Below, one piece after another: positions 5,558-16,660 of a stretch of 61,750 bases of DNA (positions within the stretch are counted from its first letter, which is position 1; the number at the start of each line of letters is the position of its first letter). Location: positions 1-61,750 of the IMG/VR virus record IMGVR_UViG_3300044941_000295; one strand, written 5' to 3'. The notes below the pieces were generated by a model. That model was not told where the DNA came from, ran no database searches, and worked only from the letters and a program-made list of their open reading frames with translations. The position numbers and the translations under genes were made by a program. This DNA is from a virus (Duplodnaviria > Caudoviricetes).

Positions 5558-6542
5558 ATTTTTTATTAAAAAATATTTAGGTGATAGCTTTGAATCGGAT
5601 ATGTTAAAATCTGAGGTAGGGGCTATTCTAAAGCCAGATGCCAATGCAAACGTACTTCCTCATGAAATGTACGTTTCCCTACAAATTGTGCCAAGGACAG
5701 TCATCTCCTTGTTGGTTCAAAAACTGAAGCCTCTTAAGCCCGGCCAACACACAGATATTGCATGGCCAACCGATTCGGGAGCTATTCACAATATTCATAT
5801 TAACAAAATTTCAAGTGATTTGTATTCAGGAGAGATTACAGGAGAGGGTAAAGTTTTAGCTAAATTTGGGTATAGAAGCTTGCCCGCTGTAGGGTTAGTT
5901 ATTATGTCCACTTATGAGCTGTATGACAAGGAAACTAATAAGCAAGACCTGCAAAACCCCCAAATCGACTATGACAAGGTTCAGAGAATTATTGACGAAA
6001 GAATCAGAATGCAAGCTCTTGTTGAAGATGTTGTAAGTAGGAAATTATCTGAAAGAGACGCCTTACAACAACTTATAATGCAAAGAATTAACGACTACTT
6101 AAGAGTTTCTGAATCAATTAAACAGGAAACACCTCAAGAAAATCAACATAACAATCTAGAACAATCCGAATATATGGAGGAGCATACAGAGGAAGAGTCT
6201 GATGAGCCAGAAATCGATGAGATTGATGTTGATAAAGAAGTGATTGAAGAAGTGGAAAACACTAAAAAAGATAAAAAAAATAAGCTTAAAGATTTTTTAA
6301 ACAAAAAAGTTAAAAAAACTGAAAGTGTTAAAATACTTAAGCAAGAAATTAAATGCCCCTACTGCAGCACAACTATTTTTAAAGGTGGAGATTCGATTGA
6401 TTTGTGCGTATGTTTTGGGGAAGATTTTGGAAACTCAATTAAAATTAAAAAAAACAAAAATAACGAATACACATTTAAATATCCTAAAAACTTTAGCATT
6501 GATAATGCCACCATGCTTTTAGGATTTTTAAAGAAAAAATAG
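5547..6542 (+). CDS. hypothetical virion-region protein with C-terminal Zn-ribbon (start uncertain, GTG 5547)
   Basis: CPYC...CVC; MLKS motif near N-terminus. Confidence 0.65.
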   Translation: MKCKFFIKKYLGDSFESDMLKSEVGAILKPDANANVLPHEMYVSLQIVPRTVISLLVQKLKPLKPGQHTDIAWPTDSGAIHNIHINKISSDLYSGEITGEGKVLAKFGYRSLPAVGLVIMSTYELYDKETNKQDLQNPQIDYDKVQRIIDERIRMQALVEDVVSRKLSERDALQQLIMQRINDYLRVSESIKQETPQENQHNNLEQSEYMEEHTEEESDEPEIDEIDVDKEVIEEVENTKKDKKNKLKDFLNKKVKKTESVKILKQEIKCPYCSTTIFKGGDSIDLCVCFGEDFGNSIKIKKNKNNEYTFKYPKNFSIDNATMLLGFLKKK

Positions 6543-6551
6543 AGGTTTAAT

Positions 6552-8027
6552 ATGGCAAAGGTCTATCTAGCTTTGAATGGCGACAATGTGGGTTCTAAAA
6601 TTAGCGAAACCATTATGTCCAACAACCCTGAAGAAGTGCGTAAGGTATCTGCAAACTTTAATCAAGCTCATGCCGAAATTGACCAGTGGGTAGAAAAGAA
6701 TGGGGGTAGGGTTATTTCCGCTTCAGGAGATGAGGCTATCTACGAAATCGATGATTCTAAAATTAATGAATTGAGCCGTTTAGCTTCTAATTATGAATCC
6801 AAAACAGGGCACACGTTGACCGCAGGGGTTGGCTCCGATATCATGGAAGCGGTAAAAGCTATGGTTTATGGAAAAATGCACGATCCCGGTCAAATCATTC
6901 AGTATGACGAAGAAATCGATGAGGCTATTTCACCTAAAGAGGAAGCTCAAGCGGAAGAAATCGCAGAAGACTTAGATGAAGGCGATATGGAAGAGGAAGA
7001 CGATTCTGAAGAGCTTCCAGAGGACGACATGGAAGAGGACGACATGGAAGACCTTCCAGAAGATGAAATGGAAGAAGAGGATATGGAAGAGCTTCCAGAG
7101 GACGACATAGAAGAGGACGACATGGAAGACCTTCCAGAAGAGGATATGGAAGAAGAAGATGATTCTGAAGAGCTTCCAGAAGATGATTCTGAAGAGCTTC
7201 CAGAAGATGATTCTAAAGAGCTTCCAGAGGACGACATGGAAGAGCTTCCAGAAGAGGATATGGAAGAAGAGGATGATTCTGAAGAGCTTCCAGAAGAGGA
7301 TATGGAAGAAGAAGATGATTCTGAAGAGCTTCCAGAAGAGGATATGGAAGAGGGTGAGGGTACGGATGAAGAATCTGGCGAAGATGAAGATGCTGTGGTA
7401 ATGCCAAAAAACAAATTTATTAACGAACACAAAAAACTTGTTGACACCTTAAGATCTCCAGAGCATGAAGATGATTTGAAAGAAGCTGAAGATCAGGAAA
7501 AAGAATTGGAGGAATTCCAAGGTCGAGACAGCGACGCAGATATGTCGGAAGACGAAGATATGGAAGAAAGCTCTGATATTGACGGCGAGGATGAAGTTTC
7601 TGAAGAAGGGGTTGAACCATCTTCTGATGAAGAAATAGAAGATAATGAGGCGCCCGAAAATATGGAGGATCAAAGCCAATCACCTCTTCCTCATCCTTAT
7701 ATGCTTCATTCAGAGGAGCCAGAAGAAGGTCAAGATGAAGAAATGGAAGGGGAAGAGCAATCCGCCCAAGGCAATCAAGAGCTTAAGCAGAGAGTAATGC
7801 AAACCCTCATGTCTTTTAAGCAAAATAAAGATAAAATTGAAATGATGAAAGAAAGTGACCCAGAAATGTATAGAAATACAATCGATATGCTTAACCGCAT
7901 GATTGAAATGGCAAGACAGCTTCAGGCGTCACCTGATGCGGAAATGATGGAGCAAGCTCAACAGCAGCCGCCAATGCCTATGCAGGAGGAAGCTCCAGAA
8001 GTAAAAAAGCCGCTGGGCGGGATGTAG
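6552..8027 (+). CDS. mCpol/GGDEF-like palm domain fused to long acidic repeat region (0-frame product, 491 aa)
   Basis: VYLALNGDNVG...ISASGDE...TAGVG...AVKAMVYGK motif order; AGAGG RBS. Confidence 0.7.
   Translation: MAKVYLALNGDNVGSKISETIMSNNPEEVRKVSANFNQAHAEIDQWVEKNGGRVISASGDEAIYEIDDSKINELSRLASNYESKTGHTLTAGVGSDIMEAVKAMVYGKMHDPGQIIQYDEEIDEAISPKEEAQAEEIAEDLDEGDMEEEDDSEELPEDDMEEDDMEDLPEDEMEEEDMEELPEDDIEEDDMEDLPEEDMEEEDDSEELPEDDSEELPEDDSKELPEDDMEELPEEDMEEEDDSEELPEEDMEEEDDSEELPEEDMEEGEGTDEESGEDEDAVVMPKNKFINEHKKLVDTLRSPEHEDDLKEAEDQEKELEEFQGRDSDADMSEDEDMEESSDIDGEDEVSEEGVEPSSDEEIEDNEAPENMEDQSQSPLPHPYMLHSEEPEEGQDEEMEGEEQSAQGNQELKQRVMQTLMSFKQNKDKIEMMKESDPEMYRNTIDMLNRMIEMARQLQASPDAEMMEQAQQQPPMPMQEEAPEVKKPLGGM
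6960..7390 (+). repeat. coding acidic tandem repeats (EELPEEDMEEEDDS-like)
   Basis: Recurrent gaagagcttccagaagaggatatggaagaa units. Confidence 0.9.
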
Positions 8028-8065
8028 TCAAGTCAACTCGCCTGCCCAAAAAATCGACTAGACAT
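7984..8065 (+). promoter_or_regulatory. programmed -1 ribosomal frameshift signal
   Basis: AGGAGG 7984-7989; A AAA AAG 8003-8009 in the correct phase; stem TGGGCGGG 8014-8021 / CCTGCCCA 8041-8048; loop TAGTC can pair with GACTA 8056-8060. Confidence 0.8.
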
Positions 8066-8293
8066 ATACCAAAGCCAAGACTGCCGCTAGGATGGGTTAA
8101 AGATGGCAAGATTAAAGTTAAGGATGGCGACACTGGAAAAATTATGTGGCGAGGGGTTCGTAGAGGTCTTAGTTTAGATTTTGACGGAGATCCAACCTCT
8201 GAAAGACATAACTATTCTGAAGCTAAAGTAATTAACACTCATTCGCCAAGATCAGGCAGACCTAGAAAACGCACCCCCGAAACAAGAGGGTGA
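8009..8293 (+). CDS. -1 frame extension (94 aa, AAGRDVVKSTRLPKK...TPETRG) of the 6552 gene; fusion about 580 aa
   Basis: Open frame fills the gap exactly, ending TGA 8291-8293 just before ATG 8295; no start codon between the upstream in-frame stop (7934) and the slip site. Confidence 0.75.
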   Translation, partial: AAGRDVVKSTRLPKKSTRHIPKPRLPLGWVKDGKIKVKDGDTGKIMWRGVRRGLSLDFDGDPTSERHNYSEAKVINTHSPRSGRPRKRTPETRG

Positions 8294-8294
8294 T

Positions 8295-9056
8295 ATGGCC
8301 GATTTTAAGATTACGGTTAATGTTGACGAAATAGCTCAACAACTTAATAAGAAAAAAGAAGAAATCCTATCTCAAACAAAAAAAGCTGTAAAAGGCTTAG
8401 CTATTGCCTCTCACGCCCATGTTCTGGAGCTTGCAGGTGATAAGTTAAAATCTCTTCAATCCAAATACAAAGATGCGGTAGATTTTGAACAGGTTGATGA
8501 TAACTTGTTTGTAGTGTCTTTGTCGAAAGAGGCTATGTGGATTGAAAAAGGACATGGAGCTTGGAGCATGTATGACAAGTTGTCATCTTCTCCAAAAGCT
8601 AAGACCTCAAAAGAAGGCCACAAATACCTGACCATTCCATTTGAGCACTCCAAAAAACCTTCCGAACAATCTGCAAAAGCAAGAGAAATTACCGATCAGG
8701 TTAAAAGCTTTCTTAAAAAAGAAAAAATCCCCTACAAAAAAATAGAATATAACCCCGATGGGTCGCCTAAAATGGGGCTAATTCATAAGTTCGACATTAA
8801 AAGTGCTAAACCTTCTGAAAAAGCTAAATTTCCTACCTTGCAAGGGGTGGCAATTTATCAGCGAAAGGATAAGGAAACGGGCAAAATTAAAAAAGATATT
8901 ATGACTTTTAGGGTGGTGTCTGAAAAAAATAAGGGGGATGGCAGGTGGGAATATCAGCCTAGAGAGGGTGTTAATATTTTTGAGGAAACCTATAAATGGG
9001 CTATAAACACTTGGAATCAACAGATTCTTCCTGCCTTAATTGACAGCTTAAAGTAA
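8295..9056 (+). CDS. putative neck/tail-completion protein
   Basis: Basic 253-aa ORF upstream of sheath; YLTIPF and MTFRVVS motifs. Confidence 0.5.
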   Translation: MADFKITVNVDEIAQQLNKKKEEILSQTKKAVKGLAIASHAHVLELAGDKLKSLQSKYKDAVDFEQVDDNLFVVSLSKEAMWIEKGHGAWSMYDKLSSSPKAKTSKEGHKYLTIPFEHSKKPSEQSAKAREITDQVKSFLKKEKIPYKKIEYNPDGSPKMGLIHKFDIKSAKPSEKAKFPTLQGVAIYQRKDKETGKIKKDIMTFRVVSEKNKGDGRWEYQPREGVNIFEETYKWAINTWNQQILPALIDSLK

Positions 9057-9062
9057 TCTTTA
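9055..9062 (+). promoter_or_regulatory. putative late promoter motif AATCTTTA
   Basis: 14 nt before ATG 9077. Confidence 0.6.
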
Positions 9063-9076
9063 ATTAAAGGAATGAC

Positions 9077-10066
9077 ATGCAATTATACGGACTTTCTACT
9101 ACAGACGCTTTAATTAAAACAGCTATTGAGCTGGCAGTCGAAGATTTGATTAAAAATCCATGGGTTATTGAGCACATGTACAGCTCTTTTATAGAAAATC
9201 CAATACTTAATAAAAAGTATGGGTACAAAGAAATCGCAAGAGCTAAAGAGTTTCTTCTTAATAACAAAATCCATTTTTATCAAAAACATCGGAAAGATAA
9301 AATGGAGTTTCCTTGTATCACCATATCCCTATCTCAGACTTCGGAAGATGCTCAATTGGCGACTTTGGCAGATCAGTCACACATTGTTCATGAATACTCG
9401 CCCGAACAAATTAACAAGCCTATTTCTTATATAATCAAACCCACCCAAATTCTCTCGTATGACCCTCTCACAGGAATTATGGAGATACCAGAAAACGAAT
9501 CCTATAAGTATATAAGTGCTGGAATGTCAGCAATTAACCCTGATACGGGCGAAGGGTATGTAATAGAAGGGAAGGCGGGGGAGCAAGGTTTTCTTATCCC
9601 AAAAAACCTTGAAATCAATTTTGAGCGCATAGCTGTCATCCCCCAATACCTTACTTACCGCGCACGTATGGAGCGAATTGTGACCAAAGAGACCTACTCT
9701 ATTGGATGCCACGCTCATGGAGACCCTTCCTTAACTCTTTTCCTTTATAATTTGGTTAAGTATGCGTTATTACGTTACAGAGAAAGTCTTTTTGAACAAT
9801 TTAATTTTCAGTTAGGTACAATTACGGCTAGCGATACTATTGAGAATGACGCTTTTGGCGCCGATGATGTTTATTCTAGATTCATTACGCTAAGCGGTCA
9901 GGTAGAAGAATATTGGGTTAAAACACCATTTAGAAAATGGGAAGCTATTGATTTTATTGATAGACAGAACGATTTAGTTGTTTCGGGAATTAAGATTTTA
10001 TCTAATAAGACGGACGGAGAAGAGGAAGATGTTTGGACAACCGTTCAGGACAATGAGGAAGAGTAA
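9077..10066 (+). CDS. putative tail terminator/completion protein
   Basis: FPCITISL motif and position upstream of sheath. Confidence 0.45.
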   Translation: MQLYGLSTTDALIKTAIELAVEDLIKNPWVIEHMYSSFIENPILNKKYGYKEIARAKEFLLNNKIHFYQKHRKDKMEFPCITISLSQTSEDAQLATLADQSHIVHEYSPEQINKPISYIIKPTQILSYDPLTGIMEIPENESYKYISAGMSAINPDTGEGYVIEGKAGEQGFLIPKNLEINFERIAVIPQYLTYRARMERIVTKETYSIGCHAHGDPSLTLFLYNLVKYALLRYRESLFEQFNFQLGTITASDTIENDAFGADDVYSRFITLSGQVEEYWVKTPFRKWEAIDFIDRQNDLVVSGIKILSNKTDGEEEDVWTTVQDNEEE

Positions 10067-11286: not shown

Positions 11287-13431
11287 ATGGCTCAAACTTT
11301 AACTACGTCTTTTATCACTACATCAGTGCCCGGCTCCTACGCTGAAACTCTGGTGAAGTCTGATCCTGTAGGTGTTGCAGCCTCAGGCGTTATTGCAATT
11401 ATTGGTGAAGCTGATGGTGGCGACAGTTTTTCTCAAGAAGAAGATCTAAAAGAAAACTTTTTTGGCCCAACACAGGTAGATCGCGTTACCCAGAAGTACG
11501 TCTCTGGCCCAATCGTTGACGCTGTAAGAATGCTAAGCACTCCTTCCGCTGATGCAGACATTACTGGTGCTCCAACTAGAATTTACGTACTTAAAACAAA
11601 CTCTTCAACTAAAGCAAGCTCCGCGCTTCCTTCGTACGGAACTATCTCTGCTAAAGTTGCAGGTGCCGATGGGAACAAAAATAAATACGAGATTACACAC
11701 GTTGATGATGAAATCGCCCCAGCACTGAGCGGTGCTACTATTACTAACTTTGCTGCCCTGTCTGGTGTGCAGTTTGGTGTTCGTTTGAATGGTGGAGCTG
11801 AAGTGGTTGTTGACTCATTTACAGGTGTACCTACCGACTATGACACAATTGGTGAAGTAATTAACCTTCTTGACACCGACCTTCCTGCGGGAATGTCATG
11901 CGTTGCAGGTACAGCTCCAAACTCAATCAAGATATTGATCGACCCTGACGCAGTTGCTTATCAAAAAGGATGGGGTAAGAGTTTTGAATTGATAGAGATC
12001 ACCCCCGGCGGTCTTGCTGCCTTAGGTTTGCAAGAAGGTCTGGTGGTTTCATCTGTTGAACCAAAAGCTCAAATCGACATTAAGAGAGCGGACATTAACT
12101 TAAATGAAAGCTTTAGCGCTGCCGCAGAAGTTGCACTTGCGTTGGGTTATCAAGGTACTACCGCTACTGTAACAATCACCTCTACCACTCTTTCAACAAC
12201 CGTTACTGGCGGATCTGGTGCTAACCTTACACTTCAATTGTCACAATTCTCAACCATTAAAGAACTTGCAGACTTCATCGCCTCTCAGCCCGGCTATTCA
12301 GCACAGGCTCTAGTTGGCTCTACCTCCCTTCCAGTATCGGCGCTCGACAAAGTAACTGCAGTTGGTATATGCTCAACGGGTGCTGGAAGAAAGTCAGGAA
12401 GAATTAAAAAGTCTGTCCATAACGTTAAAAAAGCTGTAAATGCAAGTCAGGCTGTTGAAATTACTGTCACTGCCAATGCGGGATTGCCAGCAGAGACAGC
12501 TAGCGCAGTGTTTTTGACGGGCGGAGCTAAAGGTGCGACTTTGGCCGCCAATATCGTTAGTGCTATCGAAAAGCTCGAAGGTATTGACGTTAACTTTATC
12601 GTACCTCTCTTTTCAAGAGATTCTGCCCAAGACATTTTGGATGGCAAAACAGAATCAGGCTCTTCTTATACCATCTCAGCTATTAATGCTGCAGTAAAAA
12701 ACCACTGCTTAAAAATGAGCACAGCAAAAAACAAAAAAAGCAGAACCGCATACTTGTCAATTTGGGGTAGCTACTCTGCTGCTAAAGCTGAAGCTTCATC
12801 TCTCTCCCACTACCGCATGTCCTTGGCGTTCCAAAAAGTAAGCCAAGTTAATGCTCAAGGGGAAATTGAAACCTTCTTGCCTTGGATGGCGGCAGTAAAT
12901 GCTGCTGGTATGCAGGCAGCTGGCTTCTATCGCTCTATCTTGAACAAGTTTGCCAATGTAGTTTCTTACATAGATCCTGCTGGATACGACTCTAACAATC
13001 TTGATGATCAAGAAGACGCTCTACTTGCTGGACTTCTGCCTCTAACCAAAGATGTTGCTGGAAATAAATGGTTGAGCGACCAAACTACCTATATCCTTGA
13101 CAAGAACTTTGTTTACAACAGCTCTCAGCTTGTTTACGTATCTGATCTTCTGTCTCTTGATCTCACCGCAAGTCTGCAAAGAGCCTTCGTTGGTAAATCA
13201 CTGGCAGATGTAGATGCAGGTACTGTAAGTGGATTTATAGTAAGCAAGGCAGACTCTTACAAGAAGCAAAAATTGATTGCTGCTTCTTCTGACGCTCCTG
13301 CTGGCTTCAAAAATCTCAAAGTCTCTATCAAAGGAGCGGTAACTGAGGTAGCTATAGAGTTTAAACCTAGCGGCTCTATTTACTTTATCCCTGTAACTAT
13401 CACTCTATCTCAAATAAGCTCAGAAGCTTAA
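11287..13431 (+). CDS. tail sheath protein
   Basis: N-terminal VPGSY, IAIIGEADGG, FLTGG motifs; 714 aa; strong AAGGAG RBS. Confidence 0.9.
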   Translation: MAQTLTTSFITTSVPGSYAETLVKSDPVGVAASGVIAIIGEADGGDSFSQEEDLKENFFGPTQVDRVTQKYVSGPIVDAVRMLSTPSADADITGAPTRIYVLKTNSSTKASSALPSYGTISAKVAGADGNKNKYEITHVDDEIAPALSGATITNFAALSGVQFGVRLNGGAEVVVDSFTGVPTDYDTIGEVINLLDTDLPAGMSCVAGTAPNSIKILIDPDAVAYQKGWGKSFELIEITPGGLAALGLQEGLVVSSVEPKAQIDIKRADINLNESFSAAAEVALALGYQGTTATVTITSTTLSTTVTGGSGANLTLQLSQFSTIKELADFIASQPGYSAQALVGSTSLPVSALDKVTAVGICSTGAGRKSGRIKKSVHNVKKAVNASQAVEITVTANAGLPAETASAVFLTGGAKGATLAANIVSAIEKLEGIDVNFIVPLFSRDSAQDILDGKTESGSSYTISAINAAVKNHCLKMSTAKNKKSRTAYLSIWGSYSAAKAEASSLSHYRMSLAFQKVSQVNAQGEIETFLPWMAAVNAAGMQAAGFYRSILNKFANVVSYIDPAGYDSNNLDDQEDALLAGLLPLTKDVAGNKWLSDQTTYILDKNFVYNSSQLVYVSDLLSLDLTASLQRAFVGKSLADVDAGTVSGFIVSKADSYKKQKLIAASSDAPAGFKNLKVSIKGAVTEVAIEFKPSGSIYFIPVTITLSQISSEA

Positions 13432-14711: not shown

Positions 14712-14897
14712 ATGAATTGCGATGGATGCAAAAAAGAGTTTGAAGTGCTAAATGTATTCAGTCCCTATGGGCACGACAATCCCTTTATTAGAGAGGAATC
14801 GGCCAGAAACACGGGGTATTGTGATGTTTGCTTTAATATTAAACTGGAAGAGCTGGAAAGCATGGTATATGAGAATACGGAGGAGAAAACCGCATGA
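14712..14897 (+). CDS. small Zn-finger protein
   Basis: CDGC...CDVC. Confidence 0.65.
   Translation: MNCDGCKKEFEVLNVFSPYGHDNPFIREESARNTGYCDVCFNIKLEELESMVYENTEEKTA
14863..14870 (+). promoter_or_regulatory. putative middle promoter motif TGGTATAT
   Basis: Upstream of the GGAGGAG RBS of the chaperonin. Confidence 0.55.
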
Positions 14898-16660
14898 GAC
14901 GAGTCAAAGAAGCAGAAAAGATTTTTACCAGCGATTTAGATAAAATTCAAAACGTAATTGTTTCTACACTGGACGATGTAGCTAAAATTGTTGGATCTAC
15001 TCTTGGGCCGGGAGGGCGCGTTGTAGCGATTGAAAGTATGCTTCCAGACATCCCCCATTCAGTAACAAAAGATGGGGTTTCGGTATTTAGAAGTTTGGGA
15101 GCTTCCAACGCTCTTCAGCAGCTTATTATTGAAATTACACGTGAAGCGGCTATTAAGACCGTATCCGAAGCTGGCGACGGCACTACTACTTCAACTATTT
15201 TGGCTGCGGAATTTACTAAAAATCTCTATAAGTTTTGCAAAAATAATCCCAAATACCCGCCGCAAAAAGTGGCGCGAATTATTAATAAGCTTTTGAATCA
15301 GAAATTTTTACCCTACATTGATAAAAATGCTATTAAAATTTCAAGCAAGAAGAAAAATCTAGATCTTTTGGAAAAAGTTGCTAATGTGTCGGTAAATGGC
15401 GACTCCGATATGGCAAAAGCTGTAATCTCCGCCTTTGAAATGACAGGTTTTTCGCAGGGATCGCATATTACTATTCAGCAGCTTTCGGGCCCATCTGACA
15501 AATATGAGGTGAGTCTAATTGAAGGCTTCCCCGTCTCGATGGGGTATGAAGAGTCAATTGGTAAATTTCACCCTGCTTTTATTAACGATAAGGGTAAGTT
15601 GAGGTGTGTACTTGAAAAACCACTATTCATTCTGTTTGATGGTAAAATTACCGATATAGTCCAGATCAAGAATGCCTTGGAAGGTATTGGCCAAGAATAT
15701 ACCAATGGGAACTCAGATTTTAAAAACGTGGTTCTTGTAGCTCACGGCTTTTCCGACCAGATTTTGACAACCCTTGCTTACAATTTTAACGACCCAACAA
15801 CCATTAACGTTGTGCCGTTTAAAACTCCAATCAATGCGATTATTAACTCGGAAACACAATTCCTCTATGATTTGGCGGCGTTTACGGGAGCTAAGATTTT
15901 TGATATGAACAACCCTATAAACAATGCTAAGGGTGACGAATTTGGCTTCGGAATGGAAAGAATGGAAATTTATAGATTCCGAGCAACTGTAATTGGAGAC
16001 CCCGATCCCACACTGGTTGAAGTGAGAGCCGAAGAAATTAAACAGCAATCCAAGCAGGCCAGCTCCAAACTAGAAAAAATTCTATTGGAAGAGAGACTTG
16101 GTAAGTTGACTTCTGGAATTGCCGAACTTAAAATCTATGGAGCTTCTGTTGGCGAACTTAAGGAGAAGGCTGATCGTGCAGAAGACGCCGTATTGGCAGT
16201 AAGATCTACTTTAAGTGATGGGTGTCTGCCGGGCGGGTGTCGTACTCTGATCAACCTAGCTTTGGAGTTGCACGAAGACAAAGATCCCATTGTCAATGAG
16301 GTGGTGATTCCTAGCCTATTCGCTCCGTTTTACCGTTTATTGGAAAATGCAGGGTATAATTTAGAAGAAATTGAAAAGATTCTATCTCAAATGATTAGCA
16401 ATAAAGACCTAGTAATGAATGTGGAGACGGGGGAATTTGGTGAAGCGACTGCCTTAGGTATATTTGACGCTATGCAAGCAGTTAGGCAGTCGTTAATTAA
16501 CTCTGTAAGTATTGCCTCTACTTTAGGGACGTGCGGCGGTCTAATTGTTCAACCAAGAATTCGAGAGCTTGAAATTCAAGATGCTAAGGACGAAGCAAAC
16601 TTTAGAAGAACGTTAAATAACGCAGAACACTTTATAAATGAAGCTAATGAGAGGGGGTAA
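14894..16660 (+). CDS. groEL: GroEL-like chaperonin
   Basis: STLGPGG, VTKDGVSV, AGDGTTTS, ERLGKLTSG, LPGG motifs. Confidence 0.92.
   Translation: MRRVKEAEKIFTSDLDKIQNVIVSTLDDVAKIVGSTLGPGGRVVAIESMLPDIPHSVTKDGVSVFRSLGASNALQQLIIEITREAAIKTVSEAGDGTTTSTILAAEFTKNLYKFCKNNPKYPPQKVARIINKLLNQKFLPYIDKNAIKISSKKKNLDLLEKVANVSVNGDSDMAKAVISAFEMTGFSQGSHITIQQLSGPSDKYEVSLIEGFPVSMGYEESIGKFHPAFINDKGKLRCVLEKPLFILFDGKITDIVQIKNALEGIGQEYTNGNSDFKNVVLVAHGFSDQILTTLAYNFNDPTTINVVPFKTPINAIINSETQFLYDLAAFTGAKIFDMNNPINNAKGDEFGFGMERMEIYRFRATVIGDPDPTLVEVRAEEIKQQSKQASSKLEKILLEERLGKLTSGIAELKIYGASVGELKEKADRAEDAVLAVRSTLSDGCLPGGCRTLINLALELHEDKDPIVNEVVIPSLFAPFYRLLENAGYNLEEIEKILSQMISNKDLVMNVETGEFGEATALGIFDAMQAVRQSLINSVSIASTLGTCGGLIVQPRIRELEIQDAKDEANFRRTLNNAEHFINEANERG

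Follow-up and report, generated by a model that had tools for sequence, protein, structure and literature searches.

The slippery heptamer of Escherichia coli dnaX, A_AAA_AAG, is highly shifty, and the tail chaperones G and GT of phage lambda are produced in a 30:1 ratio that matters for assembly (both from PMC5009743). Cases in which a −1 shift extends a capsid protein are named in the same article and in the reference list of PMC10885494. Bacterial mCpol (minimal CRISPR polymerase) proteins have about 125–130 amino acids (aa), and their genes form defence operons with a neighbouring 2TM-beta or CARF effector gene (PMC12657218 and PMC12657230). In this study, a gene for an mCpol-like protein was analyzed in the viral record IMGVR_UViG_3300044941_000295, which has 61,750 base pairs (bp) and a completeness estimate of 39%; this whole stretch of DNA is called the window. 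The gene lies on the + strand at 6552–8027, and it was compared with related loci from other viruses. We consider, with a probability of roughly 0.88, that its 3′ end contains a programmed −1 ribosomal frameshift that would add a conserved basic module to an acidic protein.

The slippery heptamer A_AAA_AAG is located at 8003–8009 (+) and is read in the 0 frame as GTA AAA AAG (8001–8009), that is, in the X_XXY_YYZ phase. A Shine-Dalgarno (SD)-like AGGAGG at 7984–7989 (+) is placed 13 nucleotides (nt) upstream of it as a candidate 5′ stimulator, and a candidate 3′ stimulatory hairpin at 8014–8048 (+; arms 8014–8021 and 8041–8048) starts 4 nt past it. The 8-bp stem, including one G-U pair, is the minimum-free-energy fold at −16.6 kcal/mol. 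The 0-frame stop codon TAG (8025–8027) falls in the hairpin loop, and the 3′ arm consists of the Leu-Pro codons of an LPxK motif. The −1 frame is open from 7937. Its extension at 8009–8293 (+) comprises 94 codons and a TGA (8291–8293), which ends 1 nt before the ATG at 8295. A phased heptamer inside the overlap of the two frames, an open coding −1 frame, a 3′ structure and an internal SD-like element were all found, as expected for a dnaX/IS3-type site, where the structure typically lies about 5–9 nt past the heptamer and the SD-like element about 10–14 nt before it. The original prediction, made from the letters of the window, had proposed an unannotated −1 frameshift at this place. What it said of the heptamer phase, the AGGAGG, the stem, the −1 open reading frame (ORF) and the spacing proved accurate, and its predicted junction peptide is consistent with a tandem slip on the heptamer; the length that it implied for the long form is corrected to 486 + 94 = 580 aa. 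No Rfam family matched 7900–8150 at expectation values (E) up to 10. Considered alone, the window signal is only suggestive. The proposed arrangement of SD-like element, A_AAA_AAG and 3′ hairpin is backed by the comparison across relatives described below.

Related loci were collected through the gene that follows the extension, which encodes a 253-aa protein (8295–9056, +). This protein has 64 database relatives, and an alignment of 34 of them was used to retrieve viral loci. The pattern scan with this alignment gave 86 stretches, of which 84 were confirmed as relatives, and 80 viral loci were compared. A scan of viral contigs with the single protein had given 17 pattern hits and no relatives, whereas the alignment-based scan succeeded. 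A blastn search with 6000–10000 against 50,697 phage records gave no match. The only cultured relative found, Myxococcus phage Mx1, was reached via the 253-aa gene; tblastn of the extension against cultured phages returned nothing and missed the in-frame copy present in Mx1.

The 94-aa extension matched 41 of the 80 loci by tblastn, with E down to 7e-38, and the matches were always flanked by the mCpol-like gene on one side and the 253-aa gene on the other. A hidden Markov model (HMM) built from these matches raised the count to 67 loci, or 68 of 81 when the window is counted. In 52 of the 67 loci the extension occupied its own stop-to-stop ORF, −1 relative to the long mCpol-like ORF; in 14 it was the plain C-terminus of that ORF, and in one (L056) it lay in the +1 frame. 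The 13 loci without an HMM match consisted of four that are cut off upstream, four with an extension-like in-frame C-terminus judged by eye only (L042, L048, L073 and L075), three in which no extension was found (L021, L025 and L079), and two ambiguous ones. The coding sequence WNM70340.1 of Mx1 also ends with the extension module in frame. As a separate observation, C_CCA_AAG is replaced in L056 (3660–3850) by TCC CCA CAG CAG TAA followed by a hairpin; either recoding of another kind or an indel introduced in assembly could account for this.

The −1 loci and the window, after removal of identical sequences, gave 42 distinct −1 sequences. In each of them the permitted overlap was bounded by the −1-frame stop that lies upstream and by the stop of the 0 frame, a stretch of 8 to 116 nt. 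An in-frame X_XXY_YYZ heptamer was present in this overlap in all 42 distinct sequences including the window, so that the slippery site, for which a check of homologous loci had been suggested, was found throughout. By chance, 2.5 of 41 would be expected for any heptamer and 0.9 for the XXXAAAR type, as estimated from segments of the same size and phase sampled in the body of each upstream ORF. The heptamers were CCCAAAG (21 sequences), AAAAAAG (15), CCCAAAA (4), AAAAAAA (1) and AAAAAAC/AAACCCC (1, in L026). The 0-frame stop lies 0 to 6 codons past the heptamer in every −1 locus, and among database homologues of the short form, the eight closest terminate in KK plus 0 to 5 residues.

Half of the family has a heptamer that is not a homopolymer, which argues against sequencing error and against general transcriptional slippage. 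If the −1 relation were an assembly or homopolymer error, the true gene would be an in-frame fusion with A7; relatives do include in-frame fusions, and the close sisters L006 (in frame) and L008 (−1) have long A runs. Contigs from four other sequencing runs of different samples, spanning at least 7850–8233, show no indel at the A6 run, these being assembled contigs rather than raw reads, from which rare A7 variants could escape. Moreover, the arrangement recurs in 42 distinct sequences, mostly with non-homopolymer heptamers, and the 0-frame stop comes within 0 to 6 codons of the heptamer in every locus. We regard such an error as extremely improbable, the least probable of the explanations considered here. 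Slippage of RNA polymerase on the A run would instead produce mRNAs with an extra A that are read straight through. The window has A6, and runs of 8 to 10 A in L003/L005, L008, L020 and L070 could contribute to such a process. Against it, runs as short as A6 slip poorly in bacterial RNA polymerase, 25 of the 42 distinct loci have C_CCA_AAG or C_CCA_AAA with a homopolymer of at most 3, and the conserved spacing of the 3′ hairpin and the 5′ SD-like element is a ribosomal signature, so that transcriptional slippage is a very unlikely source of the −1 relation.

The stimulators were also compared across relatives. Of 30 distinct contexts, 27 have a hairpin that starts 4 to 7 nt past the heptamer, with a mean z of about −2.3 over all 30 (summed by hand), and a hairpin was also present in 9 of 9 additional contexts. 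In most loci the 3′ arm is formed by the Leu-Pro codons of LPxK, whereas the variable linker supplies the 5′ arm. Matched arms include GGCAGG/CCTGCC, GGTCGG/CCGACC, GGGTAGG/CCTACCC and GGAAGACC/GGTCTTCC, and the 5′ arm tracks the 3′ arm. When the arms of each locus were paired, the mean energy was −16.8 kcal/mol, compared with −10.5 kcal/mol against the 3′ arms of other loci, and 0 of 10000 permutations reached the observed value; genomes that differ in G+C partly confound this cross-pairing, kinship among loci works against its control, and the LP motif of L009 was mislocated in it.

The 3′ arm occupies three registers on the LPxK codons, and therefore the all-locus consensus structure (alignment A2) was dropped and a subgroup was used. 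Covariation was counted on 13 sequences sharing one register, picked by eye from A2. In this subgroup 89.8% of cells pair; sliding the partner over by 1, 2 or 3 columns leaves only 14 to 47%. Both sides change in 6 of 10 pairs. The covariation score was 0.423 versus 0.211 (0 of 500 shuffles). Thus the stem covariation that had been named as a check was observed in the 13-sequence subgroup. The anti-SD duplex energy at −19 to −7 was −6.55 kcal/mol on average in 41 loci, compared with −1.67 kcal/mol in in-phase segments of the same ORFs, and the SD-like site is within the best 10% of its own ORF in 28 of the 41. Heptamer, hairpin and SD-like element are all conserved, and the complete three-part signal of dnaX type is thus kept.

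The original prediction had further proposed an H-type pseudoknot, in which TAGTC of the loop (8025–8029) would pair with GACTA (8056–8060). Both motifs are present in the window. Their pairing is not established: the energy of loop-to-downstream pairing is −7.9 kcal/mol for a locus's own sequence and −6.4 kcal/mol for other loci, with a crude loop definition and confounding by composition, and GACTA is conserved because it lies in the conserved T-K/R-H codons.

The extension itself behaves as coding sequence. Its conserved core at 8042–8200 (+) follows the pattern LPxK..KH..PxG..GKxKVxD..TG..W..G..D.DGDP in an alignment of 48 sequences (A3), and the extension thus holds a conserved basic module of about 60 aa. 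That the shift would add a basic C-terminal domain, as originally predicted, agrees with an isoelectric point (pI) of 11.2 and with 24 Lys and Arg against 10 Asp and Glu. The extension is conserved at the protein level though the neighbouring 253-aa proteins share 33 to 66% identity with that of the window. One of the four contigs mentioned above belongs to a diverged strain, and this natural variant carries 17 substitutions in 8117–8218. Read in the −1 frame, 14 of them hit third codon positions, and the whole set alters only 3 residues, all conservatively, whereas the two alternative frames would suffer 14 and 16 changes. These data support purifying selection on the −1 frame, and conservation of −1 frame coding, another check proposed at the outset, was found both in the tblastn and HMM matches and in the third-position substitutions.

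Copies of the module also exist as a regular part of mCpol-like proteins. The database proteins P0074, P0094, P0095, P0081 and P0093 are mCpol-like and contain the module in frame, at the end or internally. With the in-frame copies in the viral loci and in Mx1, these proteins indicate that the extension is a genuine module of the mCpol-like protein family. When 1.8 billion representative proteins were scanned in full with HMMER, 31 matched, mostly gene calls of 55–111 aa. In the window, the first ATG, GTG or TTG of the −1 frame is at 8144, within the conserved domain, and the gene-caller product that starts there, a 49-aa ORF at 8144–8293 (+), is a truncated mis-call that halves the conserved module. 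The protein atlas contains the extension sequence from residue 46 onward only and gave no usable match. Many of the 55–111-aa 'orphan' proteins in databases are probably the same artefact of truncated calling.

These gene calls could also be taken at face value, in which case the extension would be an independent small gene with its own, possibly non-canonical, start or with termination-reinitiation. Most homologues are indeed called as stand-alone proteins of 55–111 aa, and 18 of 41 loci have an ATG, GTG or TTG between the slip site and the conserved motif, including an ATG 2 to 8 codons before the motif in L008, L018, L055, L057 and L074. Such a start is missing ahead of the motif in the −1 frame of the remaining 23 of 41 loci, which include the window as well as L002, its closest relative, and the SD energies of the candidate starts are weak, at −5.6 kcal/mol or weaker. 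In addition, an independent gene leaves three features unexplained, namely the −1 relation in 52 loci versus +1 in one, the in-frame heptamer of every distinct locus, and the in-frame fusion in at least 14 loci and in Mx1. This explanation is therefore given a very low probability, equal to that of transcriptional slippage.

A model of the extension obtained with AlphaFold2 had a mean predicted local distance difference test (pLDDT) value of 76.6, with a beta-hairpin at residues 34–49 and extended flanks. Foldseek found no significant fold for it in the PDB (best E 2.6). Searches of the extension against Pfam, NCBIfam and PADLOC returned nothing, and PHROGs gave a weak match to phrog_12339 only (E 0.008). 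The original prediction had described the added domain as cleavable, with a maturation site near its beginning. This part found no support: the segment from the slip site to LPxK varies in length and sequence across the 48 aligned extensions, and no protease or cleavage motif was found for the proposed site. The nucleotides of this segment form the 5′ arm and the loop of the hairpin and are constrained at the RNA level.

The distribution of the two states was examined on a quick maximum-likelihood tree of the 253-aa protein (80 rows; two truncated loci were removed by a length filter). No −1 locus occurs in a basal group of 11, to which Mx1 belongs; its members are in frame, lack the extension or are ambiguous. 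A clade of 69 (Shimodaira-Hasegawa-like approximate likelihood ratio test 98) contains all 53 −1 loci, 11 in-frame loci and L056. The tree needs at least 9 switches between −1 and in-frame states and at least 4 between A-type and C-type heptamers; it has a midpoint root only, so that gain and loss of the frameshift look alike on it. The sisters L006 (in-frame fusion) and L008 (−1, with a run of 10 A and no hairpin) differ in state; either the state switched recently or one of the two has a homopolymer that was misassembled.

Such switching would also fit a decaying remnant, in which a domain once in frame lost its expression when a deletion of 1 nt severed it, and the extension-less loci L021, L025 and L079 point in the same direction. 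However, the −1 frame remains open and conserved at the protein level, the substitutions of the natural variant fall at third positions, and the slippery site and the covarying hairpin are retained. Decay is accordingly a still less probable account than an independent gene or transcriptional slippage.

Several results weigh against a programmed −1 frameshift. The window hairpin is modest when taken alone, with z −1.94 and 6 of 200 shuffles folding equally well, and L008, L020 and L026, which make up the 3 of 30 contexts outside the hairpin count, have no convincing hairpin. The compared loci share kinship, and the counts given here are not of independent events; the G+C confounding of the cross-pairing and the possible start codons in 18 loci, both described above, belong on the same side. 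Some relatives have the module in frame and others lack it, so that the family as a whole can do without a fixed ratio and even without the extension. RNA sequencing runs were sought for the window stretch and none was listed. We infer from the sequences that ribosomes shift at this site and that they do so at some efficiency, and a programmed −1 ribosomal frameshift is still the reading that we prefer.

The signal, its phase and conservation, the covariation of the hairpin and the coding extension were established by comparative computation. On the frameshift reading, most ribosomes would stop at the TAG at 8025–8027 and yield the 491-aa acidic protein. A fraction of them would be paused by the AGGAGG 13 nt upstream and the 8-bp hairpin 4 nt downstream of the heptamer, and would slip back by one base on A_AAA_AAG (8003–8009) with tRNA-Lys in the P and A sites. 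The shifted ribosomes would then read the 94 codons of the −1 frame and produce the 580-aa form with the conserved basic module.

We infer that both isoforms are required at a set ratio. As a working view by analogy with lambda G/GT, the shift may fix the ratio of an untagged enzyme-like protein to a form tethered by its basic module. Our guess, from the charge of the module and the gene neighbourhood, is that it would tether the protein to nucleic acid or to a virion or assembly component. An extended scenario appears improbable. In it, the frameshift would set the ratio of two forms of an active mCpol cyclase of the phage, a free acidic one and one whose basic tag tethers it to DNA or to a neck or virion component, so that part of the enzyme would be packaged or positioned for delivery. 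Its cyclic-nucleotide product would feed or jam host signalling immunity early in infection. If this were true, the phage cyclase could, for example, prevent a guard of Panoptes type from responding to the depletion of CBASS signals by the phage. Phage counter-measures of this kind are still to be found, according to the discussion of PMC12657218.

The 0-frame product, the short form of 491 aa, has a pI of 4.05 and was identified from the ORF list, Pfam and NCBIfam. Its N-terminal palm or cyclase-like domain of mCpol type covers residues 5–116 (6564–6899, +) and contains GD and SGDE motifs, in the contexts NGDNVG and ASGDEA. The Pfam family mCpol (PF18182) matched with 61.7 bits against a cutoff of 26.4, and NCBIfam NF033576 with 45.2 bits against a cutoff of 40. 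A phmmer match to the sequence of the solved Panoptes OptS 9mnr_A was also obtained (E 4.9e-9). By these profile thresholds, both of which were exceeded, and by its motifs, the gene is assigned to the mCpol family. Of 62 aligned family rows, 50 retain the metal-binding D and GD[DE]; some of the other 12 are truncated or are GDQ variants. The active-site motifs of the palm are thus conserved, and the phage mCpol-like domain may be catalytically active.

The palm domain is followed by an acidic low-complexity linker of the EELPEDDMEE type, encoded by tandem-repeat DNA at 6978–7352 (+; Tandem Repeats Finder). Residues 125–330 contain 116 Asp and Glu out of 206, and a conserved helical C-terminal region comes after the linker. 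The repeats within 6978–7352 are nested, with periods of 15, 24, 39, 42, 78 and 114 nt. The near-identical protein P0097 (483 aa) differs in repeat content, and the length of the linker array therefore varies between strains.

All long ORFs of the window are on the + strand. Their products include a tail sheath, a GroEL-like chaperonin, a portal and terminase-like proteins, which indicate a large contractile-tailed phage. The mCpol-like gene is five ORFs upstream of the sheath gene (11287–13431) and is flanked by a gene for a 'virion structural protein' (phrog_1004) and by the conserved 253-aa and 329-aa genes that precede the sheath. Across the compared loci as well (L002–L080; window 6552–6926), the phage mCpol-like domain sits in a virion-gene module of large myoviruses.

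The 253-aa gene belongs to phrog_16819, to which no function is assigned, and its ATG is 1 nt past the extension stop. Its product has a confident predicted model (pLDDT 90.8), for which no significant fold match (best E 0.51) and no profile match among solved structures was found, and the search with the 329-aa neighbour gave no useful match. The SD-like sequence of the 253-aa gene, AGAGGGTGA, sits within the last codons of the extension (8276–8297). Only frameshifted ribosomes would traverse the junction between the extension and the 253-aa gene, and translation of the latter might therefore be coupled to the shift. Further downstream, the GroEL-like chaperonin gene (14894–16660; phrog_5725, E 6e-89) is located between the sheath/tube region and a helicase/terminase-like ORF of 1048 aa.

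No PADLOC model matched the mCpol-like protein or the five neighbouring or overlapping products, to which the scan for effectors was confined. The pairing with a 2TM-beta or CARF-TM effector that marks a Panoptes defence system was not seen among these products, and the neighbours are genes of the virion module. Identity as a tail assembly chaperone was rejected: the position is wrong, and Pfam, PHROGs and NCBIfam contained no chaperone family for the protein. A context other than tail chaperone or capsid genes had been anticipated in the original prediction, and the family searches and the position agree with it.

The finding would correct annotation, now given as a 49-aa ORF and as orphans of about 55–110 aa, across environmental myoviruses of about 150–170 kb related to Mx1, and it would add a recoding site in a setting other than the tail-chaperone and capsid genes in which such sites usually occur. 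The natural in-frame and extension-less variants provide an evolutionary experiment on why an isoform ratio is kept. It also highlights a phage-encoded mCpol-like protein with conserved active-site motifs, whereas the production of decoy cyclic nucleotides by bacterial mCpol in Panoptes defence was shown only in 2025. No phage-encoded mCpol is mentioned in the accessible portions of the Panoptes papers PMC12657218 and PMC12657230, and 'frameshift' has 0 occurrences in the accessible portion of the Mx1 genome announcement. Literature searches gave no report of this frameshift or of a phage-encoded mCpol, with supplements, including the PRFect predictions of PMC10885494, outside the search. The mechanism, a −1 shift of dnaX type, is known; the gene family, the context and the breadth of 42 sequences appear unreported.

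Compared with E. coli dnaX (tau/gamma), the mCpol-like gene has the same heptamer A_AAA_AAG, an upstream SD-like element, a hairpin a few nt downstream and a nearby stop codon. The two differ in outcome, since the dnaX shift truncates the protein and gamma is the shifted, shorter form, whereas the shift in the phage mCpol-like gene would add a 94-aa domain; there is no sequence relationship between the two signals. With G/GT of lambda and the corresponding chaperones of other tailed phages, the mCpol-like gene has in common a conserved −1 shift near the 3′ end that appends a domain to a shared N-terminal part. In contrast to G/GT, it is found upstream of neck-region and sheath genes and not between the tube and tape-measure genes, and its N-terminal part is an mCpol palm domain.

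The capsid extensions of T3, T7 gene 10 and Lactobacillus phage A2 resemble the present case in that partial −1 shifting gives a C-terminal extension. They are carried by major capsid proteins and are often Ig-like, whereas here a small basic module would be placed on an enzyme-like acidic protein. Finally, the likeness to Panoptes OptS/mCpol is in the N-terminal 116 residues, which match the family and contain GD/GGDE-type motifs, while the phage-encoded form differs by its acidic and helical tail of about 370 aa, its frameshift module and its virion-gene neighbours.

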